Made by a program: the position numbers and the translations under genes | Notes under the pieces: generated by a model | What the model saw: the letters and a program-made list of their open reading frames with translations, nothing else | What the model was told of the DNA's origin: nothing | The model's database searches: none | NCBI GenBank assembly: GCA_963839295.1 | Contig: CAWIUK010000010.1 | Coordinates: 160,101 to 224,100, forward strand | Length of the DNA stretch: 64,000 nt | Reading direction: 5' to 3' | Source of the DNA: an uncultured Acidobacteriota bacterium | GTDB lineage: Bacteria; Acidobacteriota; Thermoanaerobaculia; UBA5066 | Shown: one piece after another, positions 4,077-63,195 of the stretch | How positions within the stretch are numbered: position 1 is the stretch's first letter | Layout of the letters: each line of letters starts with the position of its first letter

Positions 4077-4936
4077 GTCCGGATCGCCGTCGCCGTGCGC
4101 GGGATGCCCGCCGCGTCGAGCCGGACTCGCTCGAGGCGGAACCCCGGCGCGGCCTCGACGAGCGCGGAGACCTCGTTCGCCTGGCTGTAGCCGAACTCGA
4201 AGACGAACGGCGCGCCCTTCTCGAGGAACCGCGGAAGCGCCGCGAGGATCGCGCGGAGCGGGTCGAGGCCGTCCGCGCCGCCCCAGAGGGCGACGCCGGG
4301 CTCGTACTCGCTGACGGTCTTCGAGAGGTGCGGCTGGTCCGTGAGCGGGACGTACGGCGGGTTCGCGACGACGAGGTCGAAGCGCGCGGCGCCCCCGAGA
4401 GCCGAGAGCCAGTCGGAGGCGACGACGCGCACCCGGTCCGCGACGCCGTGGCGGCGCGCGTTCGCGGCCGCGAGTGCGAGGGCCGCCGGGGAGCGGTCGA
4501 GCGCGACGACGCGGGCGAGAGGCCGCTCGAGCGCGAGGGAGACCGCGAGGATGCCGCTGCCGGTGCCGAGGTCCGCGAGGCGAAGGGCGGCCGGCGCGGC
4601 CCGGCGGGCTTCCTCCACGATCCCCTCGGTCTCGCCGCGGGGGATGAGGGCGCGCGGGTCCACGGAGAACGTCCGCCCGAGGAACTCCCACTCGCCGAGG
4701 AGGTACTGGAGCGGCTCGCCCGCGGCGCGCCGCGCGACGAGGTCCTCGAACGCCGCCGCGGCGTCCGCCCCGGCCGCCTCGCGCCGACGGGCGAGGAACC
4801 ACGCGCGGGGGCGGCCCGCGGCGCGCGCGAGCAGCTCCTCGGCCTCGTACGGCGCGTGGTCGCGCCCTGCGAGCAGGGCGCGACCACGCGCGAGGAGTTC
4901 CGCCCACGTAACGGGGAGGCTTTCGGGTTCGGCCAT
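4073..4936 (-). CDS. prmC: Peptide chain release factor N5-glutamine methyltransferase
   Basis: 287 aa. SAM-binding LADLGTGSGILAV, catalytic NPPY (VVANPPYVP), and the HemK N-terminal helical domain. Confidence 0.9.
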   Translation of the reverse strand: MAEPESLPVTWAELLARGRALLAGRDHAPYEAEELLARAAGRPRAWFLARRREAAGADAAAAFEDLVARRAAGEPLQYLLGEWEFLGRTFSVDPRALIPRGETEGIVEEARRAAPAALRLADLGTGSGILAVSLALERPLARVVALDRSPAALALAAANARRHGVADRVRVVASDWLSALGGAARFDLVVANPPYVPLTDQPHLSKTVSEYEPGVALWGGADGLDPLRAILAALPRFLEKGAPFVFEFGYSQANEVSALVEAAPGFRLERVRLDAAGIPRTATAIRT

Positions 4937-4962
4937 CGCGTCTGAGGTTCTAAACTGCCGCC

Positions 4963-33415: not shown

Positions 33416-35131
33416 GTGAAATCGTCCGTGTCCGTCCTCCTCGTGGCTGCGGTGCTCGGCGTCGCCGGCTGTTCCACCTCGCCCAAAGCGGCGTCCCCGT
33501 CACCCACCCCGTCGCCGTCGCCCGCTTCGAAAGAAGCGCAGGCGAAGACGAACCAGCGGGCCGAGTCGCTCCTCGGAGTGAGACCCCCCGTGGAGAACGC
33601 AGGGGAGGAAGACGGCCAGGTCGCGGCCCCGGTTCCGTACGTCGACCCCGAGACCGGAAGGCGCGTCCTCAGCATCCCGAAGGGCGGCGTCGGCACGCAG
33701 TACTACGAGAAGAACGGCCGCCTGTTCCTGGCGATGGTCTCGAGCGGAGGCGTCCCGATCCTCCGGCAGGACGACAAGGCGTGGATCGTCGAGGCGCCGG
33801 CCGAGCCGAAGAAGCGCGACCCGAATGCCGCGCCCGCGGTCGAGGACCAGGAGCCGATTTACGAGGTGCCGAAGATCGAGGCCGAGGTCGTCGCGCCGAA
33901 GACGTCGAAAGACCCCTTCCGGTTCGAGGAGATCTCGGCGGGCCTGCCCCGGACCGGCATGTGGCGCGAGAACTTCGACCTCGGCGACGTGCTCGGGGAC
34001 GGGCGTCCGCAGATCGTCGCGCCGCCCGCCCGGATGACGGGCCAGTCGCTCATGGTGTTCAAGCTCGGCAAGGACGACAAGGGCGCGCCGCGCTGGAGCC
34101 AGGCCCGGATCGAGCTCGAGAACCCCGACCAGCTCGACGCCGAATACGGCTTCGCGGCCGTCGCCGACGTCGACGGCGACGGGAAGCCGGACATCGTCTA
34201 CGGCGGACACGGCGCCGGTCCGGCCGTCGCCTTCAACAAGGGGGGCGGCAAGTTCGTCGCCGAGGCGCGGGGGCTCCCGCGGCCGATGTCCACGCGGGCG
34301 GTCGCCATCGGCGATCTCGACGGGGACGGACACAAGGACCTCGTCGTCATCTCCGACACGGGGGAGTGGGGGATTTCGGGCGGCAGGCCCGCCCTCGACA
34401 AGGACTCCACGTACGTGCGCGGGTACGACGTCCGCGCGTTCCTGAACGACGGGACGACCTTTCGCGAGGTCCACAAGGGCCTCGAGGGCGCGTGCTTCGG
34501 GTACGCGATCGCCCTGGCCGTCCCGAAGGACGCGAGCGGCGGCCTGCCCTTCTACAACTCCGCGTGCCGGTACTTCGGCGGGGCGCCGAACCTCTTCGAG
34601 TTCGACGCGAAGGCGGGAGAATTCCGCTACGCCGGCGGCGCCGCCGTCGAGGGCTTCGGCCAGCAGGTCGGCGCGGCGGCCGGCACCTACCGGGGCCGGC
34701 CCGCGATCTACGCGTCGTATTTCAAGCGCACGCCCGGCAACGGCGTGCCGAAGATCGACGGCCAGGGCGTGACGGTCTACTTCCGCGGCGCGGACGGGAA
34801 GATGGAAGCCAGGCGCGTCGTCAAGACGCTCCGGTTCGACACGGGCTCGCCGGCCATCGCGGCCGGCGACCTCAACGGCGACGGCCTCGACGACGTGGCC
34901 TGGGCCGACGAGTCCACGCACCGCATCCGCGTCTTCTTCCAGACCGCGGCGGGCGACTTCGAGGAGCTGGCCGAGGAGCGCGAGCCCACGTTCGTGAACC
35001 ATCCCACCTGCATGAGGATCGGCGACGTGGACGGGGACGGGCGCCCGGACCTCGTCCTCATGTACCAGTACCTGACGGGGGACGAGACGCGGTCGGGCGG
35101 TTTCCGGGTGTTCCGCGGCCTCGCGAAGTGA
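33416..35131 (+). CDS. FG-GAP/VCBS-repeat lipoprotein (integrin-alpha-like beta-propeller)
   Basis: Trimmed from ORF 33296 to GTG 33416, with SD AGGAG at 33406-33410. VKSSVSVLLVAAVLGVAGCS (lipobox), a PS-rich linker, and repeated DVDGDGKPDIV, GDLDGDGHKDLVV, GDLNGDGLDDVAW and GDVDGDGRPDLVL motifs. Confidence 0.8.
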   Translation: MKSSVSVLLVAAVLGVAGCSTSPKAASPSPTPSPSPASKEAQAKTNQRAESLLGVRPPVENAGEEDGQVAAPVPYVDPETGRRVLSIPKGGVGTQYYEKNGRLFLAMVSSGGVPILRQDDKAWIVEAPAEPKKRDPNAAPAVEDQEPIYEVPKIEAEVVAPKTSKDPFRFEEISAGLPRTGMWRENFDLGDVLGDGRPQIVAPPARMTGQSLMVFKLGKDDKGAPRWSQARIELENPDQLDAEYGFAAVADVDGDGKPDIVYGGHGAGPAVAFNKGGGKFVAEARGLPRPMSTRAVAIGDLDGDGHKDLVVISDTGEWGISGGRPALDKDSTYVRGYDVRAFLNDGTTFREVHKGLEGACFGYAIALAVPKDASGGLPFYNSACRYFGGAPNLFEFDAKAGEFRYAGGAAVEGFGQQVGAAAGTYRGRPAIYASYFKRTPGNGVPKIDGQGVTVYFRGADGKMEARRVVKTLRFDTGSPAIAAGDLNGDGLDDVAWADESTHRIRVFFQTAAGDFEELAEEREPTFVNHPTCMRIGDVDGDGRPDLVLMYQYLTGDETRSGGFRVFRGLAK

Positions 35132-35196
35132 GGTTCGGGGGCGTCCCGACACTCAATGGGTGATATGCGGCCCCAACATAATTTTTCGAAATGGCC

Positions 35197-35225
35197 TTGA
35201 CACCTTGGAATTTCGCCCCTATCGT
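35197..35225 (+). promoter_or_regulatory. Candidate sigma-70 promoter of the 35409 gene
   Basis: TTGACA (35197-35202), a 17-nt spacer, then TATCGT (35220-35225), in a low-GC gap. It implies a leader of about 175 nt before ATG 35409, which has SD TAGGAGA. Confidence 0.5.
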
Positions 35226-35408
35226 TCCGGCAGTGTTCGGGATATCTCTATCCGATTCGGTGCTCCCTTTGCCCCAGGGCGATGGGGGCGTTGCCTCTAA
35301 AAAAATTGCGGGAGGTGATTCGATATCGCAGGCGGCGAGCGCCCACGTTCCTCTAGTCATGATCGACGTAATCACACGTTTCAATCGAAATCACCGGTAG
35401 GAGAAAAA

Positions 35409-37058
35409 ATGAAGAAGTTTTCCGTTCTGATCGTGCTCGCGCTGCTCGCGGTTGCGGGTACGGGCTACGCGGTCACCTGCGCGTACGACAACGTGCCCGC
35501 GGCGACCCTCCTCGTCCCGTACTGGAAGGTGACGCTCAACGGCGCCACCGACTACCCGATTCCGACCGGCGGCACGGACACGCTCGTCTCCGTCGTCAAC
35601 GTCTCCACCCCCGGCGTGATCGCTCACGTCACGGTGTGGAACAAGTACTCCAAGGCCGTCGTCGACTTCAACATCCCGCTCACGGGCAAGGACGTCGTGT
35701 CCTTCTCCATGCGCGACGTCATGAACGGCAAGCTCAGCCCGAACCTTCCCCAGTACAACACGACGCTGTTCCCCGATGATCCGTGCGGCCTCATCAACCC
35801 GGGCGCCACGAACGCGATCTACCAGCCCTCCATCGGCTGGGCGGCGAACCAGTTCATCCGCTTCTCGAACCCTGACGCCGTCGCGGGCCCGTCCATCACG
35901 TCCGACACGTACCGCTCGATCTCGCAGTACAACCTGACGAACCCCGACGCCATCGGGCCGCTCTTCCGCCCGACCGTGTGGCACTCCCTCGACCAGTCCG
36001 GCGACATCACGACGTTCACGTCGTCCGGCGGCGCCAACATCCTCGACACGGACAACCCGGCGTGCAGCTCCAGCTGGAGCGGGGACTCGGTCTACAAGGA
36101 CGCCCTCTCGGGCTACCTGACGATCGACGTCGTCAACTACTGCACGAACTTCTTCCCCGACCAGCCCGACTTCTACGACAAGGACGCCATCGCGACGATG
36201 GGCTGGGGCCCGGCCAACGGCCTGACCTACACGCCGAACGTCCTGATCGGCGACATCTTCTACGTCGACTCGGCTGCCAACGGCGGCAACATCTCGGGCG
36301 ACCCGGCCGTCGCGGTCGAGTTCGACATGCGCCTGCCCTTCACGCCGACCACGAAGACCTTCTTCGGCAAGTTCGTCGCCTCGACGACGCCCACGCAGTG
36401 CGTCGCTGAGACGACCGGCGGCGTCACCGGCTGCACGAGCTACATCAGCGGCTACGCCCCGACGTTCCAGTTCGCCGGCGACGGCCGCGAGCCCCTCGGC
36501 GACCGCTACGGCTTCCGCTACCTCGCCGACTCGGCCAACGGCCTCCAGTCCTGGATCCAGGTCTGGCGCTCCGACTACTACAACGGCGCGGCGATCAACC
36601 TCTGCAACTGGGCGAACCCGGGCTCCGGCTTCGGCAAGGGCGCGGCGAGCACGACCGGTGCGAACTCCGGCATGTACGACGCCCTCCACCAGGTGCAGAT
36701 CTTCACGTACGACAACGACGAGAACGTCTACCAGGGCCAGGGCATCCCGCCCGGACCGTCCGGCCCCGGCCTGACGCCGCCCTCGAACACGTACATCTTC
36801 CTCGAGTCGCAGCGCATCAACCTGCTCACCGCCACCGGCTGGAACCCGTCGAACTTCGTCGGCGGCTGGGTCGACCTGACCCTCCGCGGCGCGACGATGA
36901 CGGGCGTCGATGCGGCGAACGGCCTCTACAACATGGGTTGGGTCGGTGTCATGCACACCGCGCCCGGCGCGTTCATCAGCGTCGGCCACGCGACGGCGAA
37001 CCTCAACAACCAGATGCAGTGCGCGCCGAACTTCACTGCACCAGGTACCCTCAACTAA
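35409..37058 (+). CDS. Orphan secreted Cys-containing surface protein (S-layer-like / major coat protein candidate), unknown family
   Basis: 549 aa. Signal peptide MKKFSVLIVLALLAVAGTGYA. Composition is rich in T/N/G/S/Y/W and poor in R/K/E, unlike its neighbours. 8 Cys. Own promoter, strong SD and a textbook terminator, so it is monocistronic. I recognise no motif. Confidence 0.8.
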   Translation: MKKFSVLIVLALLAVAGTGYAVTCAYDNVPAATLLVPYWKVTLNGATDYPIPTGGTDTLVSVVNVSTPGVIAHVTVWNKYSKAVVDFNIPLTGKDVVSFSMRDVMNGKLSPNLPQYNTTLFPDDPCGLINPGATNAIYQPSIGWAANQFIRFSNPDAVAGPSITSDTYRSISQYNLTNPDAIGPLFRPTVWHSLDQSGDITTFTSSGGANILDTDNPACSSSWSGDSVYKDALSGYLTIDVVNYCTNFFPDQPDFYDKDAIATMGWGPANGLTYTPNVLIGDIFYVDSAANGGNISGDPAVAVEFDMRLPFTPTTKTFFGKFVASTTPTQCVAETTGGVTGCTSYISGYAPTFQFAGDGREPLGDRYGFRYLADSANGLQSWIQVWRSDYYNGAAINLCNWANPGSGFGKGAASTTGANSGMYDALHQVQIFTYDNDENVYQGQGIPPGPSGPGLTPPSNTYIFLESQRINLLTATGWNPSNFVGGWVDLTLRGATMTGVDAANGLYNMGWVGVMHTAPGAFISVGHATANLNNQMQCAPNFTAPGTLN

Positions 37059-37080
37059 ATCTTCCCTGCATTCAGGGCGA

Positions 37081-37113
37081 GCGGGCGGCTTCGGCCGCCC
37101 GCTTTTTTTCTTT
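37081..37113 (+). terminator. Rho-independent terminator
   Basis: GCGGGCGGC-TTCG-GCCGCCCGC followed by TTTTTTTCTTTT, 23 nt after the stop of the 35409 gene. Confidence 0.85.
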
Positions 37114-37300
37114 TGTCGGGGGAAAGGTCGGCTCGCGCGGCGGCACTCCCTGCGGAAGCTCGGTCCCCGGGCGCCTTTGAATCCTGTGCGTCTTTACAGG
37201 CGCGGTTCGGGAGGATACGATCGCTATGTCTCGTTTTATCAGCTCCTTGGCCGAGAGGAACTCAACGCGAAGCCAACCCCAGAGGGAAGCCCCTGAGCCA

Positions 37301-40300
37301 ATGAATGCGTCCTCGATGACCAAACCCCGCTCCGCACGAGTCCTCGGCGCGGCCGCAGCGCTGATTCTCGGCTCGCTCGCCTTTGCACCGGGCCGGGCCG
37401 ACGGCCAGTCGCAGTCGGCGTGCACGCTCACGGCGTCGCCGACGAAGTTCGAGGCGTATCCGCCCGGCGCGGCGCGCCCCGGCACGCTGGCGGCCACCTT
37501 CAGCTCGGCGCTCGTCCTCTTCCAGAACGCCGCCGGCGCGAACCGGATGATGATGAACGAGACGTTCGGGTACTCGATCCTCGACCTGACGAACCCGGCG
37601 AGCCCGTACGCGCTCAAGTACGACGACTTCCGCTTCGACCCCGCGAGCTCGACGACGAACCCCCTCACGCAGTCCGGCGACGGCCAGAGCGCGATCCAGA
37701 CGTTCGGCGTCTCGCCCGACGGCCAGCGCGCGGCGATCGCCGTCAACGGGCCCTTCGGCGCGTGGAACACGCTCGCGGCCCGGTCGGACGGGGGCGACGG
37801 GTTCGGCCTCTGGGGCGACTTTCCGCCGAGCCGGCCCTACGGCACGGTGGTCCAGCACGTCAACGGGCGGTACATCGCGTACGCGGTCCACCAGTCGAAC
37901 GGCATGACGGCGGCGGACATCACCACGCTCCCGACGTCCGTTCCCCAGCCGCTCCCGAGTCTGAACATCCCGTACGACCAGACGGCCCTGCCGCCGGCCT
38001 ACGCGCCGCCTCTCCTCCTCAAGGGGAACTACCTCGTCTACCGGACGGGAACGTACCCCAACGCGGCCGTCACGGTCATCGACGCCTCGAACCCGGGGAA
38101 CCCGGGCGCGATCGCGTCGGCGTTCAAGACGGTCTCGATCCCGTACCTGACGAGCGACCCGAACCACCGCGCGCCGGCCAACTTCACGGCGGCGCTCGAC
38201 CCCGGGGACGCGACGAAGCTCTGGATCCTCATCGAGGTGAGCGCCGCGAGCGGCGAGAAGGCTCCGAGCTACGGCCTCGTCGCGGTCACGAAGGACGGGA
38301 CGGGCAACCTCACGGCGGCGGCCGCCCCTGGCCTCTTCGGGGTCCCGTGGCAGCCCGCCGAGACCTGGGGGAACGCCGGTTACGCTTCGGCGCTCGTCGC
38401 GCAGAACGGGAATCTCTTCGTCGTCATGTGGGCGCAGCGCTCCCTGCCGAGCCAGCAGTTCGGGTTCTACGCGACCACGGCCTCCGCCTGGACACAGACC
38501 CCACCGGCAGGCCTTCCGTTCCAGCAGGTGGCCGCGCCCGGCTTCAACCTCCCCGCGACCAACGCGTCGGCGCTCGGGGGCGGCGGCGTCGCTCCCGCGG
38601 CGAACGTCTTCCAGTACTTCCCGACGGGCCTCGCCGCCTACGCCGATCCCGCTCGCGTGCGCGCCCGTCAACCCGAAGGCGACGAGCACGCTCACGGCGC
38701 ACGTCCGTACGGCGTCGCGGTCCCGAACAACGGCACGGTGTTCATCGGCGACGAGGTGGACATCACCGCCGGCCGTCGTCCCGCCGCCGATCGCAGACCC
38801 CGCTGGTTGGCGGCGGCGGGTGGTCAACTGCGGCTGGAACTTCGACTTCGACTTCCACTCGGGCGCCGCGCTCGAGGACGCCGGCGCGACGCCGCGAATC
38901 AAGCTCCCGACAACGCCGCGTTCGGCAGTCCGGGTCCGACCCCGTCCTCGCCATCTTCCTCGTCGGACCGTGCGACCCGGCATACACGGACTTCCGGCTT
39001 CCCCGTCGACCGGGACCGGTGCTGGACAGTCGGTCCTGAGCAACGCCTCCACCGGCGGCTCCGGACTTCACAGGGGCCGAAGCAGCCGGGACGTCGAAGC
39101 CCACGACGCATCGCGATGGAGGCGCAACAACCAGTACGGGACGAGCGGCACGGCGACGTTCACGATCAACTGGAAGGTCCCGGCCGCGAAGGTCGCGTCC
39201 ACGCAGATCCTCGTCGGCGCGCCTCGCTCGTCGAGCGCGTCGGACGGCCACCCGACGCGAACGGGTACAAGTGGTATTTCGGCGACACGCCGACGAACTC
39301 TCACGGTCTGCTCACCGGCGAGCTGCGACGGACTGCTTCGTGCGTCCCGTCGCGAACCAGCCGTCGGGACGCACTACTACTGGCTGACGGCGACATACGC
39401 CAACGGCTTCTCGACGCCGGACTACGACGGGCACGACGACGTCGGCCTGCCGTTCACGATCGCGAACTTCGTCGCCGGCGTTCACGGTCAACGGCTCCGC
39501 GTGCGGCCCCATCACCGCGCTCGATCAACAACCCCGTCAACGTCGTCAACAACTCGCAGCGCGGCAGCGGGATCACGCGCGACGTACCAGTACAGCCTCT
39601 GCCGCCGGCGGGTCCGTGCGCGGACAACTACCTCCCGTTCACGATCAACGACTCCTCCGGGGCGACGGGCACGATCCCGATCCCGGCAACGACCGGCGAC
39701 ATACGCCCTCAAGATCAAGGCGACGTACACGGGTGGGACGGGCGGAACGGTGTCCTGGCCTGACCCGGCCGGCGCCGCGTACTTCACGGTCAACGCCGTG
39801 AACATCCCCGCGACCACGGTTTCCTCGATCATCCCGAACCCCGTTCCCGCCGGCAGCAACGTCACGCTGACGTGCTCGGCGGTCGGCGGGTCCGGGTCTT
39901 ACACGGGATGGGCGTGGTACAGCAACGGAAACCAGGTCAGCACGCAGAATCCGTACACGTTCACGGCGACGAACGGCGGGACCGACGCGACGTCACGTAT
40001 CCGGTGACGTGCACCGCGACCGACAGCAACGGGCAGACGAGCCAGCAGAGCCCCGTCGCGAACGCTGACGATCCTCCACTCCGTCAAGCCCGTGGTCTCG
40101 GCATCCGTCAACCCGTCCAACATCGTGGGCGGCCAGTCCGCCACGTTCACGTGCAGCGCGACCGGCGGGACGGGGAGTTACACGCTCTACCAGTGGGCCA
40201 CGGGCCTTCGGAGTGGTCTCGGGCCAGAACCAGAGCACGTACGCGGTCACGATCAACGAATACGACGGGCTCGACGATGACCCAGCAGCTCTCCTGCAGC

Positions 40301-42763
40301 GTGACGGACACCGCGAGCGCGGTCGGCACGTCGTCGTCGCCTGCAACCCTGACGATCACGTCGTCCACCTCGGGACCGCCGAGCGGCGGCGCGCTGGCGG
40401 TGACGGCGAGCGCGACGCCGAACCCCGTGCCGGGCGGCCAGTCGAGCACGTTCTCGTGCTCGGCGAGCGGCGGGACGCCTCCCTACAACTACGCGTGGAC
40501 CGTGCCCGGGCTGCCCGGGAGCATCGCGGGTCCGCAGGTCACCTACCCCACGACCAACGTGTCGACGACGCAGACCGCGCAGATCGCCTGCACGGCGAGT
40601 GACTCCGGGGGTCACAACGGAACGTCCATCGTCACGCTGACGATCAATCCTTCGGGTCCGCCCTGTCCGTCGATGGACTTCACGGTGCTTCGGAACGGCT
40701 TCGCGCTCGCGCCGCCGATGGCCTCGAACGCGGGAGAAACCCTGGTCTTCTCGGTCTCGTCGGGCTTCGCGGCGGGCTCCGCGCCGTCGTACAAGTGGGA
40801 CTTCGGCGACGGCAGCCCGACCGTTTCCGGCGCGGACGCGACGTACGAGACGCACGCGTTCACCGCCGCGGGCACGTACACGGTCACGCTCCAGCCGACG
40901 AACTCGCTCGGCCTCTACTGCGGGGGCAAGTCGTACCAGATCACGGTCGCCGGGCCGAGCGGCAACTTCACGCCCTCCTACGACGACGGGTCGATCTTCG
41001 TCACGACGAACGTGACCGCAGGCAAGGTCGTGCGCTTCACGGCGGCCGAGCCCTCCGCGGATTCCTACGACTGGGACTTCGGCGACGGGACGGCCCACGG
41101 GACGGGACCGACCGTGCTGCACATCTTCGCCGCCGGGACGCCGGCCGTGACGCTCCACGTTTCGAAGGGCGGCGCCACGGCGACGTCGACGCCGCTCACG
41201 CTCACCGTGATCGCGCCCCCCGAGCCCCCGAAGTGGGTCGTGCCGGGCATGGCCTACGTGCAGGGGCAGGTCGCGGGCACGACCTGGCAGTCCGACGTGA
41301 CGATCATGAACCCCTCGACGCTCGCGGCGACCTACTCGGTCGCGCTGCTCGACGCGCGCCACCCCGTCACCGACTACTCGCAGCTGTCGTGGACGACGTT
41401 CACGGTGCCGGCGCTCGGCACCATCTCCGACTCCAACGTCCTTCCCGACGTCTTCGGCCAGCCGCTCGGGGCGTACGGCGCCCTCATGGTGCGCGGAGAC
41501 CTCGCGCCGCTGCCGCCGGTCATCACGGCGCGCACGTTCAACAACGGCGATCCGACGAAGGGCACGTTCGGCCTGTCGGTGCCGCAGTCGTCCGTTGCGG
41601 GCGGCGTCTCGACGCAGGCGGCGCCCGCCGCGTCGGTCCTGATCGGCCTCAAGCAGAATGCGGCCGCGTACACGAATCTCGGCCTCGTGAACCTCCACAA
41701 CGACTGGGCGACGGTCGAGCTCGACTTCTCCGACGGGACCTCGGCCGCCGATCTCGGCACGCTGACCGTGCAGATCAACCCCTACCAGTCGTACCAGATC
41801 AACAAGGCCCTGCAGGACGGCCGCCTCGTGGCGGGCGCGGGCTTCTTCGGCACGAACGGCCCCCCGACGAGCGACCTGTACACCGTCAAGGTGAAGGTGC
41901 TCGAGGGCACCGCGGTCTACCCGTACGCGACCGTCATCGACACGGCTTCGACCGACGCGACCGTCGTGACGCCGACGGCGAGCCCGTCGAATTCCTACCG
42001 CCTTCCGGGCATCGTCCGGCTGACGGGCGCAAACGGCGAGAAGTTCCGCAGCCGGGTCACGATTTCGAACCCGTCGTTCGCGTCGCGGACGGTCCACCTC
42101 GTCTTCTCGTACGTCGCCTGCAAGGGAGGCGTCTGCGCGAACCCCACGACGAACTTCGTCGACGTCAAGATGTCCCCGGCGCAGACGCAGACGTGGGACG
42201 ACTTCGTCAGGGTCTGGCTCACCGCCAACCTCATCCCCGTGGACGACGCGGCGAGCTACCAGACCTCGTTCCTCGACGTCTCGCCCGCGCCCGGCGACAC
42301 GAATTCCGACCCGCTCGTCGTCATCGGCGAGACGTACAACGACCTCGGCCTGGCGACCGACGGCGCGTCGAACGGCCACGTCGGGCTCCAGATCCCGGGT
42401 TACACGCCGCTCGACGGCGCGAGCTCGACGGGCGCGTACAAGCGCCTCGCCTTGACGGGGCTCGCATCCACGGCGAGCACGAGGAGCAACCTCGTCCTCT
42501 TCGTCATCGGCGGCGCGACGGGCAAGTGGGCGAACATCCACCTGTACTCGCCGGAGGGCACGCTGCTCAGGAGCATTCCGGTTCCCGTGGACGGCTTCAC
42601 GGTGTCGAACGGGACGCTCTTCTCCGGCCTCTCCGGCGACCTGAGCCGGGTCTCGGCGGTCATCGACAACATCGACGCCGGCGTGACCGTGGGCGCCTAC
42701 GCGACGATCATCGACAACAAGTCGGGCGACTCCACGTTCGTGAGGGCGACGCCCGTCCCCTGA
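37301..42763 (+). pseudogene. Giant secreted surface protein: LVIVD-type beta-propeller + Ig-like/PKD repeats + duplicated C-terminal ~250-aa module. The reading frame is broken about 20 times in the middle
   Basis: Signal peptide MNASSMTKPRSARVLGAAAALILGSLAFAPGRADG. LVIVD-like motifs (YSILDLTNPASP, VTVIDASNPGNP). PKD signatures (YKWDFGDGSP, YDWDFGDGTA). The frame is clean over 37301-38640 and 40275-42763, both in the same frame. Between these, protein-like sequence hops among all three frames. Track ORFs 37226..39763, 38820..40007, 40092..40280, 40213..40602 and 39872..42763 are pieces of it. Confidence 0.8.
38640..40275 (+). other. Frameshift-dense segment inside the giant surface-protein gene
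   Basis: Protein-like segments alternate between frames. Examples: IPLACAPVNPKATSTLTAHV (f0), RPYGVAVPNNGTVFIGDEVDIT (f2), VVNCGWNFDFDFHSGAALEDAGA (f0), DPVLAIFLVGPCDPAYTDF (f1), NNQYGTSGTATFTINWKVPAAKVASTQILVG (f0). Further examples: DANGYKWYFGDTPTNSHGLLTG (f2), THYYWLTATYANGFSTPDYDG (f0), FTVNGSACGPITAL (f1), INNPVNVVNNSQRGSGIT (f2), and so on. Confidence 0.85.
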
Positions 42764-42865: not shown

Positions 42866-44078
42866 ATGCCCGAGACCCCCACGGCGTACTCCTTCAGGAA
42901 TCTCTCGAAGGTCTACCGCCTCTACGCCGCGCCGCGCGACCGCCTCCTCGAGGCCCTCACGGGCCGGTCGCGGCACGCCGAGGTGCACGCGCTCCGGAAC
43001 GTCTCCGGGGTCGATCGAGAAGGGCGCCGTCCTCGGCGTCATCGGCGAGAACGGCTCCGGCAAGAGCACGCTGTTCAAGATCCTCGCGGGCACGACGGCC
43101 GCGACGTCGGGCTCGGTGAACATCTCCGGACGGATCGCGTCGATCCTCGAGCTGGGCTCGTCCTTCCACCCGGACGACACGGGCCGCCGCAACGTGATCC
43201 TGCAGGCGGCGCTCGCGGGCCTCTCGCGCGAGGAGGTGGCCGACGCGCTCCCCGAGATCGAGGAGTTCGCCGAGCTCGGCGACTTCTTCGACCGGCCGGT
43301 GAAGACGTACTCCTCGGGCATGCAGATGCGGCTCGCGTTCGCGGTCGCGACCGCGGTCCTCCCGGACGTGATCCTCCTCGACGAGGCGCTCGCGGTCGGC
43401 GACGGGCGCTTCCAGAAGAAGTGCGTGGACCGGATCTTCGAGCTCAAGGCCTCCGGGAAGACGATCTTCTTCTGCAGCCACGCGATGTACTACGTCTCGA
43501 CGCTCTGCGACCGCGCCCTGTGGCTCAACGCGGGCCGCGTCGAAGCCGACGGGAGCGCGCAGACCGTCGTCCTCGAGTACGAGCGGTTCCTCGCGCGGAA
43601 GGACCGCGCGGTGCCGCCGCACGGGGCCGAGGCGGCCGTCCCCGCCGGGACGCACGCCAAGCTGCGCGAGGTCGTCGTGACCGGGGCGGACGGGACGCCG
43701 AAAGAGGAGTTCCGGCCCGGCGAGCCGTGGGCGGTCGAGCTGGAGTTCGCCGCGGACGAGCCGGCCCGGCCGCTGCAGATCCACCTCGCCGTCTCGTCGC
43801 GGGACAACGTCGTCTGCTTCTCGGCGGATTCCCGCCTCGACGGGTCGGGCCCGTTCGTCGGGCAGGGCGTCTACCGCGTCCGCATCGGCATCGACTCCCT
43901 GCCGCTCGGCAAGGGGGAGTTCGTCGTCTACGCGTACGTCGGCGACGAGCACGGCCTCGCGCTCTTCGACGCGCGGAGCGACCGCACGTTCCGCGTCGAG
44001 TCGGACACGTGGCGGAGCGGCCTCCTGACCCTCCCGGCGGTGTGGCGCACGCTCGCCCCGCACGGCGGCCCCGCGTGA
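42866..44078 (+). pseudogene. wzt: O-antigen/polysaccharide export ABC ATPase with C-terminal carbohydrate-binding-type extension, interrupted by a +1 frameshift
   Basis: The N-terminus (MPETPTAYSFRNLSKVYRLYAAPRDRLLEALTG...ALRNVSG) is in one frame. After the GGGG run at 43007-43010, the sequence continues in the +1 frame: SIEKGAVLGVIGENGSGKSTLFKIL (Walker A), YSSGMQMRLAFA, ILLDEALAVGD. A ~165-aa beta-rich C-terminal domain follows. Confidence 0.8.
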
Positions 44079-46073: not shown

Positions 46074-47141
46074 GTGATCTCGTTCGTCGTCGTCGACTAC
46101 CGCTCGTCCGCGCTCGCGCGGCGCGCGGCCGCGTCCTTCCGGGCGGCCGCGCGCGAGGCCGGCGTGGACGCCGAGGTCGTCGCCGTGGACAACTCCGGCG
46201 AGGCGGGCGCCCTCGCGGCGCACGTCGACCGGCTCGTGGCGCCGGGCCGGAATCTCGGCTTCGCCGGCGGCCTCAACGCGGGCGTTCGCGCCTCGCGCGG
46301 CGGGACGCTGCTCCTCGGGAACCCGGATCTCGTCTTCGGACGCGGCTCGGTCGCCGCGCTCGTCGACGCGCTCGCGCGCGAGGGGGACGGCGCGGCGGCC
46401 GGACCGGCCCTCTTTCACGACGAGGGGACGACGATCCTGCTCCCGCCGGCCGAGGAGCCGACGCCGATGGACCTCGCCCGCCGCCGCCTCTCGATGGATC
46501 CGGCGACGGCGGAGGGCCCTTTCCGGCGCCGCCTGCGGCGGGTGCTCCGGGTCCACGCCGCGGTCGCGCGGGGGGCCGCGCTCCGCGCCGAGGCGCTGTC
46601 GGGCGCGCTCATCGCCACGACGCGGCGCACGCTCGAGCGCGTCGGAGAGTTCGACGAACGGTACCGGCTCTACTACGAGGAGAACGACTGGCAGAGGCGC
46701 CTGAGGGCGCGCGGAGGACGGCTCGTCTTCGCCGCCGGATCCCGCGTCGTCCACGCCTGGTCCCAGAGCACGCGGCTCGAGCCGCGCGCCGCCGCGTGGT
46801 TCGCGGACTCCGAGCGCCTCTACTTCGGCGAGCACTTCGGAGCCCGGGGCCTCGCCGGGCTCGAGGCGCTCGCGCAGGCGCCGCCGTGGACGAGGCCGGC
46901 GCCCCCGCCGCTCCGCGGGGCGCTCTCGTGGCGCGCTTCCGGAGACGCCGGGATCGCCATTTCGCCGCTGCCGTGGTTCGCGCCGTTCGGCTGGGTGAAG
47001 CTGCCTTCCGGGGCCTCGGAGTGGGCGCCGCCGCCCGAGTACGCGCAGCTCCTCCCGGGGACCCTGTACGTGCGCGCCGTGGACCCGTCGACCGGCGCGG
47101 TCCTCGCCGAGGCGACGATCGCGGCGGCGCCGGCGACCTGA
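46074..47141 (+). CDS. Glycosyltransferase family 2 (rhamnosyltransferase-like)
   Basis: 355 aa. ISFVVVDYRS...VVAVDNSGE...GRNLGFAGGLNAG...NPDLVF...YYEENDW (GT2 fold with DxD-type and ED motifs). Confidence 0.8.
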   Translation: MISFVVVDYRSSALARRAAASFRAAAREAGVDAEVVAVDNSGEAGALAAHVDRLVAPGRNLGFAGGLNAGVRASRGGTLLLGNPDLVFGRGSVAALVDALAREGDGAAAGPALFHDEGTTILLPPAEEPTPMDLARRRLSMDPATAEGPFRRRLRRVLRVHAAVARGAALRAEALSGALIATTRRTLERVGEFDERYRLYYEENDWQRRLRARGGRLVFAAGSRVVHAWSQSTRLEPRAAAWFADSERLYFGEHFGARGLAGLEALAQAPPWTRPAPPPLRGALSWRASGDAGIAISPLPWFAPFGWVKLPSGASEWAPPPEYAQLLPGTLYVRAVDPSTGAVLAEATIAAAPAT

Positions 47142-47272
47142 CCGCCGCCCCGGGGATCGTCCCGAGAATTCGTCTCAACGTTAGGCAGAAGGGGGGTGCC
47201 GCACTCCCCGCGTAACGTGTCCGCTTCCCGGGCCTCAGGAGTACCGGCGGAGCTCCATCTAAAGGAGAGTAT

Positions 47273-49237: not shown

Positions 49238-49267
49238 GCGCGGCCGCAGGTCCGGATCGCTCTCCCT

Positions 49268-58709: not shown

Positions 58710-60500
58710 TCAGCGCACGAGTCGTAATTCGATCCTCGGGGCCTCGAGGACGAGCGGCTTTCCGCCCTCGGCCTCCTCGGCGGTCAGCTTCAGCGTCACG
58801 GTCTTTCCGGCGAACGCCTCGAGGTCCAGAGAGAGCGATTCTCTTCCGCCGGCCGGGACGAGGGCCCGCGCGTCGACGGGCTCGCCGGCGCCGTTCACGA
58901 CCTCGACGCGCGCGCCGCGCGCGAGCATCGGGTCGTCCCTGGATGCGGAAACGCGCGTCTCGAACCGCGCGGACTTCAGGTGCGGCGGCAGGTCCACGCG
59001 CCACGTGACGGCGGCGTCCGGCCCGAGCACGAGGTCGAGGCGGTGGAAGTCGTCCGGGTCGCCGGGCGTCCTACCGTCGCGCGAGAGAAATGCCGCCGCC
59101 TTCGATGGGTCGGTCCCGACGCGCCCGACGGCGACGTCGCCCTGGAGGAGGTACGTGCGGCGAGGACCGAAGACGGACAGCCCGTGCCGCTCCAGGAGTT
59201 CTCCGAGTAATGCCAGCTCGTCCTTCCGGTAGCCGTTCTCCCCCCACTGAAAGACGCGGGCATGACATCCCGGCGGCGCCGTCCGCCATTCCCGCAGACA
59301 CGCGGCCGAGGCCGGTGCGCGCGACGGGAGGTAGAAGGACTTGTCCTCCCAGGTGCGATTCGAATAGACGAGGCCGGAAACGATCGTCGCGAAGCCCGCG
59401 ACCGCGATCGGACGGGGCGCAGCGGCGAGAAGAACGGCGAGGGCAAGCCAGAACACGGTCATCGGTGCGATGTACCAGGGTGTGATGCCCTCGCGGAAGA
59501 AGCCGATTTGAAATGCGAGAAGGAGACCCCACGCGAGGAACGCAAGGGCCGCAATCCTCTGCCTCATCGCGTGTCGTGCGCTCCACACGGAGGCGGCCGC
59601 GAGAACGAGGCCGGCGGCCCCGAAGACGATTGCAGATCGGCGGGGGCCGAAGTCAAGACCGGTCCCGTTCGCGAACGGGCGTCCCAGGAGACCAAGAACG
59701 CCCAGAAGGCCGCGCAGCCCCGGACTCTTCACGACGCTTGGATTCGGGGCGACGAGAAGGAACCACACGTACTGCGAAAGGGCGAGCGCGGCAACGGCGG
59801 GCAGGACGGCCCAGCGTCGAACGCTCCGTTCGCCGGCCGCGAACAGGGCGACGGCGAAGACGGGCCATGCCAGCACGCCGCCCCCCCAGGACCACGACGC
59901 GAGCAGGCCACAGCCCGCGAGGAGCGTCACGCGCAGGCCGGGCCGGTCCGCGAGGCGCGTCGCGGCGAGCGCTCCGGCCGCGAGAGCGACCTGTGCGAGC
60001 TGCATCTGCAGGACGGACTCTCCGAACGTGAACGACGTGACATTCGATGCGGAGAAGGCGAGCGTCGTGAGAACGGGAAGGATCGCCCATCGTGCCGCGC
60101 TCGTCGTGAAGGCGGACGCCATGCACCACACGAGCGCGACCTTGAGCGCCGTCAGGCACAGGCCGAGGCCGAGCTCGACGCGCAGATCCCACGCGAACCA
60201 CCGCGCCTCGGTCCAGTAGATCGGCAGGAGACCCAGCCACGAGTGTCCACCCCAGATCCAGGTGTCGGAGAAAAGGCTCGCGAGCGGGTAGTGCCCCTCG
60301 AGGAGGGCGACGACGATCGGGGCCCTGCCGACATAATCGTTCGACAGGTTGTTCTCGCCGACCGTGAAGACGATCCACGCCATCCTCAGCGGCGAAACGA
60401 GGGCCAGCACCAGCGAGACCGCCTTGCCCGTGCGGCTGACGGGCGGTCCGTCCGGCGTTCCGGCCCCGGCGATCGTGTCCTCGCGGCGGTGGCTCGACAT
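58710..60500 (-). CDS. Polytopic (~13 TM) membrane protein with ~190-aa C-terminal soluble domain; GT-C-like / oligosaccharyltransferase-like candidate (paralog 1)
   Basis: Trimmed from ORF 58710..62360 to ATG 60500 (MSSHRREDTIAGAG...). Has a first-loop motif GENNLSNDY and a C-terminal domain with a Cys pair (ASAACLREWRTAPPGCHARVF). 596 aa. Colinear with the next gene. Confidence 0.75.
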   Translation of the reverse strand: MSSHRREDTIAGAGTPDGPPVSRTGKAVSLVLALVSPLRMAWIVFTVGENNLSNDYVGRAPIVVALLEGHYPLASLFSDTWIWGGHSWLGLLPIYWTEARWFAWDLRVELGLGLCLTALKVALVWCMASAFTTSAARWAILPVLTTLAFSASNVTSFTFGESVLQMQLAQVALAAGALAATRLADRPGLRVTLLAGCGLLASWSWGGGVLAWPVFAVALFAAGERSVRRWAVLPAVAALALSQYVWFLLVAPNPSVVKSPGLRGLLGVLGLLGRPFANGTGLDFGPRRSAIVFGAAGLVLAAASVWSARHAMRQRIAALAFLAWGLLLAFQIGFFREGITPWYIAPMTVFWLALAVLLAAAPRPIAVAGFATIVSGLVYSNRTWEDKSFYLPSRAPASAACLREWRTAPPGCHARVFQWGENGYRKDELALLGELLERHGLSVFGPRRTYLLQGDVAVGRVGTDPSKAAAFLSRDGRTPGDPDDFHRLDLVLGPDAAVTWRVDLPPHLKSARFETRVSASRDDPMLARGARVEVVNGAGEPVDARALVPAGGRESLSLDLEAFAGKTVTLKLTAEEAEGGKPLVLEAPRIELRLVR

Positions 60501-60511
60501 TCGTCCTCGAA

Positions 60512-62254
60512 TCAGTGTACGAGGTGCAGCTCGATCTTCGGCGCCTCGAAGACGAGCGGCGCGCCGGCGGCGGCTTCCCCGGTGCTCAGCCTCAGCGTCA
60601 CGGTCCGTCCGGCGAATGCCCCGAGGTCCAGCGAAAGCGGCGCCCGGCCGCCGGCCGGCACGAGCGCCCGCGCCTCGGCGGTCTCGCCCGCAACCGTCAC
60701 ACGCGCGCCGCGCGCGGGCGGCGCGCCGTCTCCCGAGGCCCGCACGCGCGTGGCGAACCGCGCCGACTCGAGGTCCGGCGGCAGGTCGACGCGCCACGTG
60801 ACCGCGGCGCCGCAAGGGAGGACGAGGTCGAGGCGGCGGAAGTCGTCGGGGTCGCCGCGCGTCCCGCCGTCGCGCGAGAGGAACGCCGTCGCCCCCGGGT
60901 TTTCGTTCGTGACGCGCCCGACGGCGAGGTCGCCCTGGAGGAGGTACGTGCGACGTGGACCGAAGACGGACAGCCGGTGTCGCTCCAGCGGCTCTCCGAG
61001 CATCGCGAGCTCGTTCCGCCTGTACTCTTCCTCGCCCCACAGGAAGACGCGGGCGTGACACCCGGTCGGCGCGGTCCGCCACTCGCGCAGGCACGCGGCC
61101 GACGCGGGCGAGCGCGACGGGAGGAAGAAGGACTTGTCCTCCCAGGTCCGGTTCGAGGTGAGGAATCCGGCCGCGACCACCGCGAAGCCCGCCGCCGCGA
61201 GCGGGCGCGGCGCGGCGGCGAGGAGGCCCGCGAGACCGAGCCAGAAGACGGTCATCGGCACGGTGTACCAGGGCGTGACGTCCGAACGGAACATGGAGAT
61301 CTGGCCCGCGAGGAGAAGGCTCCACGCGAGGAAGGCCAGCGCCGGGAGCCTCTCGCGCAGGGCGCGGCGCGACGCCCAGAGCGCGGCCCCGGCGAGCACG
61401 AGGCCGGCGGTCCCGAAGAGGAACGCCGCCGGGAGGGGGCCGAAGGCGGTGCCCGTGCCGTTTGCGAACGGCCGCCCGAGGAGGTCGGGGACGTGGAGGA
61501 GCCCGCGCGGCCCCGGTGGGCCCACGACGCGCGGAAGCGGCCGCACCGCGAGATACCAGACGTACTGGGAAAGGCCAAGGGCCGCCGCGGCCGGCAGGAG
61601 GGCCCATCGCCGGACGCTCCTCTCGCCCGCCGCGAAGAGCGCGGCCGCAAAGACCGGCCACGCCATCGCGCCTCCGCCCCACGACCACGAGGCGAGAACG
61701 CCGCAGGCCGAGAGGCTGGCGGCCCGCAGGGCGGGCCGGTCCGCGAGGCGCTCGAGGGCGCAGGCCCCCGCCGCGACGGCGACCACCGCGAGCTGCAGCT
61801 CGAGGGTCGACTCGCCGAACGTGAAGGAGGCGGTCTGCGCCACCGAGAACGCGAGCGCCGAGAGCACCGGCAGGAGAAGCCAGCGCCGGCGCGCGGAGAG
61901 CGCCGGGGTCAGCGCGAGCCAGACGAGGAAGGTCCTGAGGGCCGCGAGCGCGAGGCCGATCCCGAGATCGACCCGGACGTCCCACGCGAAGAACCGCGCG
62001 TCGAACCAGTAGATCGGCAGGAGCGCGACCCACGAGTGGCCGGTCGCGACCCACGTGTGGCGGAAGAGAGGCCCGGGCGGGAAGCGTCCCTCGAGAAGCG
62101 CGGCGACGACGGGAACCCGCGCGAGATAGTCGTTCGACAGGTTGTTCTCGCCGTAGTGGAAGACGATCCACGCCATGCGCGCGGGCGCGAGAAGCGCAAG
62201 ACCGATCGACAGGGTCTTCGCGGCCCGGGAAACGGGCCGGTCGTCCGTGCTCAA
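60512..62254 (-). CDS. Polytopic (~13 TM) membrane protein, GT-C-like candidate (paralog 2)
   Basis: Trimmed from ORF 60512..62539 to TTG 62254 (TTGA overlap with the holB stop). LSTDDRPVSRAAKTLSIGLALLAPARMAWIVFHYGENNLSNDYLARVP... shows the same architecture and motifs as 58710..60500. 580 aa. Confidence 0.75.
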   Translation of the reverse strand: MSTDDRPVSRAAKTLSIGLALLAPARMAWIVFHYGENNLSNDYLARVPVVAALLEGRFPPGPLFRHTWVATGHSWVALLPIYWFDARFFAWDVRVDLGIGLALAALRTFLVWLALTPALSARRRWLLLPVLSALAFSVAQTASFTFGESTLELQLAVVAVAAGACALERLADRPALRAASLSACGVLASWSWGGGAMAWPVFAAALFAAGERSVRRWALLPAAAALGLSQYVWYLAVRPLPRVVGPPGPRGLLHVPDLLGRPFANGTGTAFGPLPAAFLFGTAGLVLAGAALWASRRALRERLPALAFLAWSLLLAGQISMFRSDVTPWYTVPMTVFWLGLAGLLAAAPRPLAAAGFAVVAAGFLTSNRTWEDKSFFLPSRSPASAACLREWRTAPTGCHARVFLWGEEEYRRNELAMLGEPLERHRLSVFGPRRTYLLQGDLAVGRVTNENPGATAFLSRDGGTRGDPDDFRRLDLVLPCGAAVTWRVDLPPDLESARFATRVRASGDGAPPARGARVTVAGETAEARALVPAGGRAPLSLDLGAFAGRTVTLRLSTGEAAAGAPLVFEAPKIELHLVH

Positions 62255-63195
62255 AGTCCGAGCGCGAACGCTTCCGCGGCGAGGCGGACGTTGCGGCGCG
62301 AGTCCGAGAGGCTGCCGGCGAGCGCGAGCGCGGCTTCGGCGGCCTCGAGGAGCCGCGCACCGGGCGCGGCGCCGAGGCGCGCGAGGTCGGCGAAGCGCTC
62401 GCGGAAGACGACGTGCACCCCAGCCGGGTCGACGGTCGCGGCCGCCGCGTCGCGCAGGAGCTGGCCGAGGAGCTGCAGGCGGCGCCCGGCCTCGGCCGCG
62501 TCGTCGGCGGCGAGGAGGCCCGCGAGGGCGAGCGCCCACGAGCGCGAGCGCGTCAGGAAGATCCCGGAGACGGCCTCGAGCAGCGCGTCGCGCGTCGCCC
62601 GCGCCTCGGCGAGGTCGAGCTCCGCGGCCTCGTCGGCGTCGTGCGGCACGAAGGCCGCGCGCGCCTCCGCGTCCTCGCGGGAGGCGCCGCGCGCCGCGAG
62701 GGCGGCGGCGGTCCCGGAGCGCGAGGAGCCGGGCAGCGGCCTGACCACGACGCGCGAGAGGATCGTCGGCGGCAGGAGCCGCGGCCGCGTCGCCGTGAGG
62801 AGGAAGCGCGTCTTCGTGGGCGGCTCCTCGAGGATCTTCAGGAGCGCGCTGAACGCCGCGCTCTCCGTCCGGTCCACGTCAAGGAACACGATCGCGCGCA
62901 GCGGCGCCTCGTAGGGGAGCCGCGTGGAATCCGCGGCGACGGCCCTCACGAGCGCCGTCGGGATGCTGGTCTCCTTCGTCTCGGTCTCCTCGAAGTGAGG
63001 GGCGTTCACGCGGCGCCGCCGCTCGGGCGCGGCCACCATCAGGTCCGGGTGCTCCCTGCGGAAGACGCGCCGCGCGGCGCTCGACCCGGGATCGAAGCCG
63101 CGCCCGCAGATCGCCGCGGCGGCCTCCTCGAGCGCGGCGGCCTCGAGCCGCTTCGAGCCCGGGCCCGCGAGGAGGACGACGGGCGCGCCGCTCAC
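62251..63195 (-). CDS. holB: DNA polymerase III delta-prime subunit
   Basis: 314 aa. LLKILEEPPTKTRFLLTATRPRLLPPTILSRV is the clamp-loader delta-prime SRC-region motif. GTG start overlaps the tmk stop (GTGA). Confidence 0.85.
   Translation of the reverse strand: MSGAPVVLLAGPGSKRLEAAALEEAAAAICGRGFDPGSSAARRVFRREHPDLMVAAPERRRRVNAPHFEETETKETSIPTALVRAVAADSTRLPYEAPLRAIVFLDVDRTESAAFSALLKILEEPPTKTRFLLTATRPRLLPPTILSRVVVRPLPGSSRSGTAAALAARGASREDAEARAAFVPHDADEAAELDLAEARATRDALLEAVSGIFLTRSRSWALALAGLLAADDAAEAGRRLQLLGQLLRDAAAATVDPAGVHVVFRERFADLARLGAAPGARLLEAAEAALALAGSLSDSRRNVRLAAEAFALGL

Follow-up and report, generated by a model that had tools for sequence, protein, structure and literature searches.

The window, as we call the whole 64-kb stretch of DNA analyzed here, carries on its plus strand a gene at 37301..42763 for a secreted PKD/Ig-like protein of approximately 1,810 amino acids, with codons starting at positions that leave a remainder of 2 on division by three. 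The start ATG is located at 37301 and the stop codon at 42761-42763, and the frame is also open from an upstream in-frame ATG at 37226. Genes for an FG-GAP protein and a 549-aa protein are located upstream, genes for a Wzt-type ABC ATPase and glycosyltransferases are located downstream, and this neighborhood is syntenic in the relative L001. The N-terminus of the PKD/Ig protein, MNASSMTKPRSARVLGAAAALILGSLAFAPGRADG, reads like a signal peptide. After frame correction (see below), the product consists of 1808 amino acid residues and shows 61% identity, at 99% coverage, to the intact ortholog P0001 (1822 aa). Pfam detected PKD_4 (73.6 bits, 1.3e-20), PKD (69.6 bits, 2.3e-19), Ig_2 (38.5 bits, 1.4e-09), and Ig_3 (35.8 bits, 3.6e-07) domains in the corrected protein; these domains exceed the Pfam threshold and the protein is collinear with full-length orthologs, which identifies it as a member of the PKD/Ig-like secreted proteins.

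The N-terminal part of the gene (37301..38641, plus strand) comprises 447 codons in a single clean frame of the above phase with a GC3 of 0.946, and sequence searches with it found no Pfam family and no PDB match. The C-terminal part (40259..42763, plus strand) comprises 834 codons and the stop codon, likewise in a single clean frame of that phase, with a GC3 of 0.953. Pfam placed an Ig-like domain at approximately 40415-40598 and two PKD domains, the first at approximately 40712-40946, on the plus strand of this part; the last ~550 amino acid residues are without a known family, and a PDB sequence search of the C-terminal region gave no match.

Between these two parts, a frameshift cluster of 1,617 nt extends over 38642..40258 on the plus strand; its 20-24 single-frame jumps (approximately 13 per kb) divide it into segments of 15-290 nt switching between all three frames. 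The cluster was located by three independent methods, namely, a GC3 frame plot, a codon-usage Viterbi analysis, and frameshift-aware ortholog alignment, all of which bear out the approximately 20 frame switches in 1.6 kb reported in a preliminary description of this DNA. GC3 is 0.9-1.0 in one phase until ~38600 and again from ~40280, and between these positions the high-GC3 phase jumps across all three frames. The Viterbi analysis, trained on the clean flanks of the PKD/Ig gene, gave 24 switches, every one in 38642-40258. Frameshift-aware protein-to-DNA alignment to an intact ortholog, a check that the preliminary description had proposed, produced no continuous frame with any of four intact reference orthologs of ~1,800 aa each; 20, 21, 23, and 20 shifts were found within 38600-40300 against P0001, P0005, P0010, and P0015, respectively. 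With P0001, the alignment score rose from 4043 to 5292 once frameshifts were permitted, and the junctions were placed at 38645, 38698, 38768, 38905, 38949, 38993, 39060, 39109, 39125, 39256, 39299, 39474, 39523, 39575, 39604, 39701, 39985, 40061, 40203, and 40252. Almost every junction proposed earlier by reading the sequence lies 0-20 nt from one of these. Thirteen of the P0001-based shifts are of the one-extra-base type and seven of the one-missing-base (or two-extra-base) type; the net of 0 mod 3 agrees with the preliminary count, which had given ~12 +1 and 9 -1 shifts. When P0001 was searched against the gene with plain tblastn, the one HSP obtained extended across the cluster in a single frame (49.7% identity, 1931 columns); this result is misleading because the gapped extension was sustained by the strong flanks, and it was replaced by the frameshift-aware dynamic-programming alignment.

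The flanks proved to be clean and in a single frame, as had been described, by both the GC3 plot and the Viterbi analysis, and in the 3.85 kb of the gene outside the cluster, no frame switch was backed by more than one ortholog. Two tightly compensating pairs located there, 37493/37507 and 41808/41833, were each seen with one ortholog and are probably alignment noise. The probability that at least 20 of 22 events fall within 1.6 kb by chance is ~6e-29. The preliminary description also held that this density has no match in the 64 kb and that two other genes have one shift each, and the remaining ~62 kb indeed yielded two candidates: comparison of 14 neighboring genes with a close relative revealed one frameshift, at 43007, an error in the length of a G run (GGG to GGGG), and a stop-distance check of the window gave one further candidate at ~56353. 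Seven other frame changes without a stop nearby, picked up by a window-wide codon-usage scan, were ordinary gene ends.

Because the DNA is ~70% G+C, the nominal frame meets a lone stop in the cluster (39761..39763, plus strand, seen in the ORF list and in the single-frame translation), and the ORF list therefore gives only two long ORFs, 37226..39763 and 39872..42763, as anticipated from the prediction that gene callers would split the locus. Both are partly wrong-frame, with an Arg-rich translation. An Ig-like domain at 39837..40068 on the plus strand (Pfam Ig_2, 1.4e-09, residues 389-465 of the corrected middle segment) is detectable after frame correction only, and the junction at ~39985 lies inside it.

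The cluster could reflect genuine, very recent pseudogenization, in which the ~20 small indels are real and the protein is truncated after ~450 residues. The shifts do stand in the deposited sequence, surface-protein genes of variable islands are often lost or inactivated, and 43007 and ~56353 represent two further single candidates in the same glycan/surface island. However, the corrected segment carries no added substitution load: it is 60.3% identical to P0001, compared with 63.9% for the N-terminal and 64.1% for the C-terminal flank, and intact orthologs dip likewise or more in the middle (0.487 vs 0.581 and 0.543 between P0001 and P0005). Its GC3 is not eroded (0.941 vs 0.946 and 0.953 in the flanks; 0.685 in the nominal frame), and there is no stop in the 527 corrected codons of the cluster. 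The events are all of 1-2 nt and the length is kept (1808 vs 1822 aa); large indels and a deletion bias were looked for in the cluster against P0001, and neither was seen, with insertions to deletions at 13:7. In addition, the events are all confined to 30% of the gene, whereas decay is expected throughout (random chance ~0.3^20 for 20 indels), and the 2.5 kb that follow the cluster, with 834 intact codons, are pristine, which would not fit translation long broken upstream. We therefore disfavor decay, one of three causes that the preliminary description had offered without ranking, on the grounds that there is no substitution excess, GC3 is kept, deletion bias and large indels are absent, and the downstream 2.5 kb is untouched; pseudogenization of this kind is improbable.

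The sequence character of the junctions was then considered with respect to homopolymer errors and functional recoding. Only two of the 13 inserted bases match a neighbor, compared with an expected proportion of 0.84 for homopolymer extension, and runs of at least four bases (6.8 per kb in the cluster) are no denser than in the flanks; ordinary random long-read error thus fits the cluster poorly, and homopolymer error was rejected as its cause. The isolated frameshift at 43007, unlike the cluster, does match the homopolymer type. Examples of inserted bases are GCG[C]AAC against GCC AAC, CTC[G]ATC against CTG ATC, and GGC[T]CCG against GGT CCG in the ortholog, and clear extra bases at third codon sites occur at 39060, 39125, and 39523. 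The junction-adjacent identity statistic scored a third-codon insertion model and random insertion indistinguishably, and the neighbor-identity statistic fitted the third-codon model best but weakly, at ~0.06 (binomial, p=0.4; model value 0.41). Tandem Repeats Finder detected no tandem or simple-sequence repeats at the junctions, whose contexts are non-repetitive; the lone tandem repeat inside the cluster, a 21-nt array of ACTTCG hexamers at 38839-38859, is junction-free and lies within one frame segment. A phase-variable contingency locus, which requires a repeat or homopolymer tract at the junctions, was thus rejected.

Single frameshifts in surface-protein genes of other bacteria can be programmed or phase-variable, and this precedent is what speaks for functional recoding by programmed ribosomal frameshifting, transcriptional slippage, or phase variation. 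Here, however, at least 20 successive two-way shifts would leave essentially no full-length product, no slippery homopolymer or simple-sequence tract is present at the junctions, and the same residues are encoded in one frame in four orthologs. Recoding is effectively refuted by the junction contexts, and we give it almost no credence.

Import of the frameshifts in one event, by gene conversion of the 1.6 kb from a decayed paralog or silent cassette, would account for the sharp boundaries at 38642 and 40258 and for the restored net frame, and the segment encodes repeat-like Ig modules, a recombination-prone type of sequence. By contrast, a decayed donor would bring substitutions and stops, none of which are seen, and no part of 38640-40275 was found to recur in the 64-kb window, where the only match was one of 46 nt between Ig repeats inside the gene. 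The window likewise yielded no large repeat of a kind that might lead to misassembly. Moreover, the similarity to L001 and L002 shows no step at the cluster boundaries, and a patch would leave the pattern in four genes of L002 (see below) unexplained. Such a patch is therefore very improbable, even more so than pseudogenization. A diversity-generating retroelement target was also rejected; there is no template-like second copy in the 64-kb window, and the anomalies are indels rather than adenine-specific substitutions.

The window appears to stem from a Thermoanaerobaculia-like (Acidobacteriota) MAG. Among the three related MAGs, the PKD/Ig gene is by far the most divergent of the neighborhood, with identities of ~61-68% compared with 79-96% for its neighbors, and it thus displays the strain variability expected under collapsed heterogeneity. 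Against L001, the neighboring proteins are 79-96% identical and the PKD/Ig protein ~61-64%. Between MAGs, the gene diverges most at 40401-41200, a stretch that is frameshift-free and does not coincide with the cluster. L002 (MAG MFD04428.bin.1.167, contig_20948; CAWCSP010000004.1, 282060-304554) contains 49 frameshifts over four island genes, 42 of which are one-base insertions; the ABC-2, FG-GAP, 553-aa, and PKD genes have 1, 12, 3, and 33, respectively, so that 48 of the 49 are in the three divergent ones, and no frameshift was found in ten other flanking genes. One-base insertions are as dense in its PKD gene as in the gene in the window but lie at different positions; pseudogenization would thus need two independent indel bursts. 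L002 appears, from isolate and contig naming, to belong to the Microflora Danica Nanopore-only set, and on this attribution the same signature is present in a long-read-only assembly. Microflora Danica long-read assemblies are described as Nanopore-only and as made with Flye and one round of Medaka (PMC12313526). No near-identical intact copy of the gene was found, the best protein match having 61% identity, and the middle segment alone as a query retrieved nothing closer. Metagenome contigs contained no match to a degenerate DNA pattern across two junctions, scanning them with a peptide pattern revealed no relatives, and a scan of the genome collection returned L002 as the only relative.

Taken together, we consider it likely, with a probability of roughly 80%, that the ~20 switches are a long-read consensus artefact arising from strain differences or thin coverage and that the gene is intact in the cells, a judgment made from the sequence. 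In reality, the gene most likely consists of one continuous ORF of ~5.45 kb. This reading is supported by the indels without a substitution load (identity, GC3, and stops in the cluster all fit an artefact in this respect), their confinement to 1.6 kb, the pristine downstream region, and the precedent of L002, together with the hypervariability of the gene and the background error of long-read type at 43007. The other two causes listed in the preliminary description, consensus error in a strain-variable region and collapsed heterogeneity, are both favored by these results and represent two sides of one artefact. ORF-breaking residual indels are recognized in long-read assemblies and MAGs, and microdiverse regions are a recognized assembly problem (PMC9262707, PMC9426551, PMC8812927, PMC13543314).

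We infer that the window derives from a long-read assembly of a sample with several strains, and the behavior of the polisher is deduced likewise. In the mixed-strain mechanism that we propose and favor, reads of co-occurring strains that differ in the segment would be stacked on a single draft, from which the long-read polisher would yield a consensus matching no strain, with single bases added or lost, often next to third codon positions. Alternatively, the version of the segment private to the assembled strain might be covered by only a few reads of that strain, or unpolished long-read sequence might have been used to bridge it; by either route, raw indel errors would survive.

The MAG of the window and, independently of it, L002 both show at this locus a pattern that fits failure of the consensus. 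It is conceivable, although rather doubtful, that the Ig-like middle is extremely diverse among cells of one Thermoanaerobaculia population, as a 'constant-diversity' island and perhaps a target of phages or predators, on which the consensus fails repeatedly; in a bolder version, a dedicated diversification mechanism may act on the Ig-like segment.

The main value of these results is in quality control, and no new biological mechanism is implied. Gene callers convert the locus into two or more false, partly wrong-frame, Arg-rich proteins, and annotation may then list an intact surface protein of 1,810 aa among the pseudogenes. At least one public MAG, L002, has the same fault; therefore, hypervariable surface-protein islands in long-read metagenomes may be systematically mistranslated, which, if true, would introduce bias into pangenome and pseudogene counts. 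Where a genome is rich in GC, the problem can be recognized without reads by GC3 frame plots or by frameshift-aware alignment.

P0001, P0005, P0010, and P0015 are PKD/Ig-like secreted proteins of ~1,700-1,900 aa from Thermoanaerobaculia-type MAGs, and the protein in the window is collinear with them over 98-100%, sharing the Ig and PKD domains and the gene neighborhood; the identity is only 38-61%, and no member of the family is of studied function. With decaying bacterial pseudogenes, the locus shares many frameshifts in one former coding sequence, but such genes also show substitutions, stops, deletion bias, and varied indel sizes over their whole length, none of which are found in this gene. 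As in the residual-indel errors of long-read assemblies and MAGs (the kind measured by IDEEL-type scores; PMC9262707, PMC9426551, PMC8812927), one-base indels occur in a conserved ORF without substitutions, and the G-run error at 43007 is a textbook residual long-read indel. Typical residual errors, however, affect homopolymer length and number a few per 100 kb, whereas the cluster has ~13 per kb in 1.6 kb and 11 of its 13 insertions extend no run. Unlike collapsed microdiversity in hypervariable islands, the cluster occupies the middle third only, the flanks being equally divergent between MAGs. The locus nevertheless resembles such 'metagenomic island' genes in that the shifts lie in the most divergent gene, beside genes for a Wzt-type ABC transporter and glycosyltransferases, and in that the errors of L002 are confined to the same island genes.

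The window has a G+C content of ~70%, and the gene for a secreted PKD/Ig-like protein runs on its plus strand from an ATG at 37301 to a stop codon at 42761-42763; an open in-frame ATG also lies upstream at 37226. The product begins with a signal-peptide-like N-terminus and ~450 residues without a known family; Ig-like modules form its middle region, followed by two PKD domains and a C-terminal end of ~550 residues without a known family or solved relative. Because third codon positions are almost always G or C at this G+C content, a GC3 frame plot reveals the coding frame directly. GC3 was 0.9-1.0 in a single phase (pos%3=2) over ~37340-38600 and ~40280-42760, and the high-GC3 phase hopped across all three frames between ~38600 and ~40280. 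Viterbi segmentation, with codon usage trained on both clean parts of the gene, placed 24 frame switches, every one within 38642-40258 (hereafter the cluster). Single-frame translation gave plausible protein alternating with Arg-rich wrong-frame text. With stop codons infrequent in such G+C-rich DNA, only one (39761-39763) interrupts the nominal frame across the cluster, and ORF finders therefore give two ORFs, 37226..39763 and 39872..42763.

The frame-corrected translation comprised 1808 amino acid residues, and its best match was the intact ortholog P0001 (1822 residues, 61% identity, 99% query coverage). Three further proteins, P0005, P0010, and P0015, were collinear, and the names of the homologs point to Thermoanaerobaculia (Acidobacteriota). 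Plain tblastn was misleading for this gene, its gapped extension having crossed the cluster in one frame; we therefore wrote a custom protein-to-DNA alignment that allows frameshifts. Once these were allowed, the score for P0001 rose from 4043 to 5292, with 20 shifts at 38645, 38698, 38768, 38905, 38949, 38993, 39060, 39109, 39125, 39256, 39299, 39474, 39523, 39575, 39604, 39701, 39985, 40061, 40203, and 40252. Short segments between junctions matched P0001 strikingly (IAMEA, 5/5; PDFTGAEAAGTSKPTT, 14/16; PAFTVNGSACGPITAL, 14/16). With the other three orthologs, the shifts falling within this interval numbered 21, 23, and 20, and outside it only two short compensating shift pairs were found, each with one ortholog only. 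The preliminary description had reported dense frame switching in the middle of the gene, which the frame plot, the segmentation, and the alignments confirm in detail; its junction list agrees almost one-for-one with the alignment-placed shifts, and its rough balance of directions holds, with 13 one-extra-base and 7 one-missing-base shifts (net 0 mod 3).

The 14 other gene products of L001, the related contig carrying P0001, were aligned to the window by the same method. They showed one frameshift, at 43007 in a Wzt-type ABC ATPase gene (~42866-44078, +), where an extra G (TCC[G]GGGTCG, GGGG versus GGG) splits a gene whose product otherwise shares 95% identity with that of L001. The error here is of the classic homopolymer-length type, unlike those of the cluster. 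When all remaining same-strand frame changes in the window were checked for their distance to the next stop, one more candidate was left, near 56353. Here, in genes 55626-57645 (+), the coding signal passes from phase 0 to phase 1 at ~56351-56356, and the old frame stays stop-free for a further 1.37 kb; downstream of the change lies a group-1 glycosyltransferase, while the 242 residues upstream match no Pfam family. A further single frameshift is the probable cause, and this is likely the other one-shift island gene mentioned in the preliminary description. Two events in ~62 kb compare with 20-24 in 1.6 kb, a concentration with a chance probability of ~6e-29.

Ordinary homopolymer error did not account for the cluster: the density of runs of at least four identical bases was not raised (6.8 per kb, against 13.4 and 6.8 per kb in the flanks), and only 2 of 13 skipped bases were identical to a neighboring base. 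Flank runs of up to six bases were correctly read. Simulation through the same alignment procedure gave an expected neighbor identity of 0.84 under homopolymer extension, 0.55 under random insertion, and 0.41 if an alternative base follows a third codon position. Several junctions resemble the retention of both alleles of a synonymous site, as suggested by GCG[C]AAC, CTC[G]ATC, and GGC[T]CCG against GCC AAC, CTG ATC, and GGT CCG in the ortholog. The conservation of junction-adjacent residues did not separate the insertion models.

The gene lies 3' of genes for an FG-GAP repeat protein and a 549-residue protein, and 5' of genes for the Wzt ATPase and glycosyltransferases. L001 is syntenic with 29.4-54.8 kb of the window, with protein identities of 79-96% for neighboring genes and 61-64% for the PKD/Ig gene, which is the hypervariable gene of its neighborhood. 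L002 (CAWCSP010000004.1), a 3.67-Mb contig of the related MAG MFD04428.bin.1.167, has 87% DNA identity to 30272-52714. Among the three MAGs, protein identity over 33422-42763 was 89-96% for flanking genes, ~79-82% for the FG-GAP and 549-residue genes, and ~61-68% for the PKD/Ig gene, a gradient that marks a hypervariable surface-protein island adjoining glycan-export genes. The protein collection, the genome collection, and the metagenome contigs contained no still closer relative and no intact, nearly identical copy. Further downstream, a multihaem cytochrome-like gene (47294-49225, +) with Cytochrome_C7 and MtrC/MtrF domain matches contains a Thr/Pro-rich ACGCCG-type repeat tract (48921-49178); 47140-49271 is bypassed by the L001 alignment and covered by that of L002. 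Direct repeats ~1.8 kb apart (58710-59180 with 60512-60973, and 60126-60425 with 61919-62218; 71-79% identity) fall inside a long ORF without a Pfam match (58710..62360, -), suggesting a tandemly duplicated gene or module.

By its isolate and contig names, L002 matches the Microflora Danica long-read set, whose assemblies are described as Nanopore-only and made with Flye and one round of Medaka polishing (PMC12313526). Four consecutive island genes of L002 (2296-12495) carried 49 frameshifts (PKD/Ig gene, 33; FG-GAP, 12; 553-residue, 3; ABC-2, 1), 42 of them one-base insertions, at positions different from those of the window; ten other flanking genes had none. Proteins predicted from these four genes will be fragments. 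The same type of cluster thus appears in the same variable island of a second, apparently long-read-only assembly, as would be expected if consensus building fails where strains vary in sequence.

We infer strongly (probability about 0.8) that the cluster is not a real genomic feature but a consensus or assembly artefact in a gene that is intact in vivo. The reads behind the window assembly were probably long ones, from a community in which several related strains live together. Wherever these strains are near-identical, a deep and consistent pile-up would give a good consensus; the background is ~2 frameshifts in 62 kb, one a G-run error. Where they differ, as they may in this segment, reads mixed at polishing would yield a consensus of no strain; alternatively, only a few reads of one strain may have been usable, or the segment may be an unpolished bridge. 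We favor mixed strains because the error density is ~1.3% and the errors are insertion-rich and non-homopolymer. Such a density is as high as that of raw reads from modern instruments. Nevertheless, 40401-41200, where the gene diverges most between MAGs, is clean, so that between-species divergence is no direct proxy for within-sample heterogeneity. The artefact possibly marks a segment of a surface protein that is genuinely hyperdiverse in natural populations.

We consider genuine recent inactivation improbable; real mutation would need two independent insertion bursts, in the window and in L002. Identity to P0001 was 60.3% in the frame-corrected middle versus 63.9% and 64.1% in the N- and C-terminal parts, and intact orthologs compared mutually showed an equal or larger dip there. 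GC3 of the cluster was 0.941 corrected and 0.685 uncorrected (flanks, 0.946 and 0.953), and no stop occurred among the 527 frame-corrected codons. Overall protein length is conserved, all events are of 1-2 nt (39985 possibly 5 nt), insertions outnumber deletions in the cluster, and the 2.5 kb 3' of it is untouched. Among the causes first proposed, the artefact explanations are supported, and a decaying pseudogene is disfavored by all these features. We regard a patch recombined from a decayed copy as more doubtful still than recent inactivation, and recoding of any form as scarcely conceivable. Natural pseudogenes accumulate substitutions and stops, together with deletions that vary widely in size, along their whole length. 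By contrast, the cluster has twenty indels, all in the middle 30% of the gene, with no measurable substitution load, a pattern characteristic of a measurement process prone to indels.
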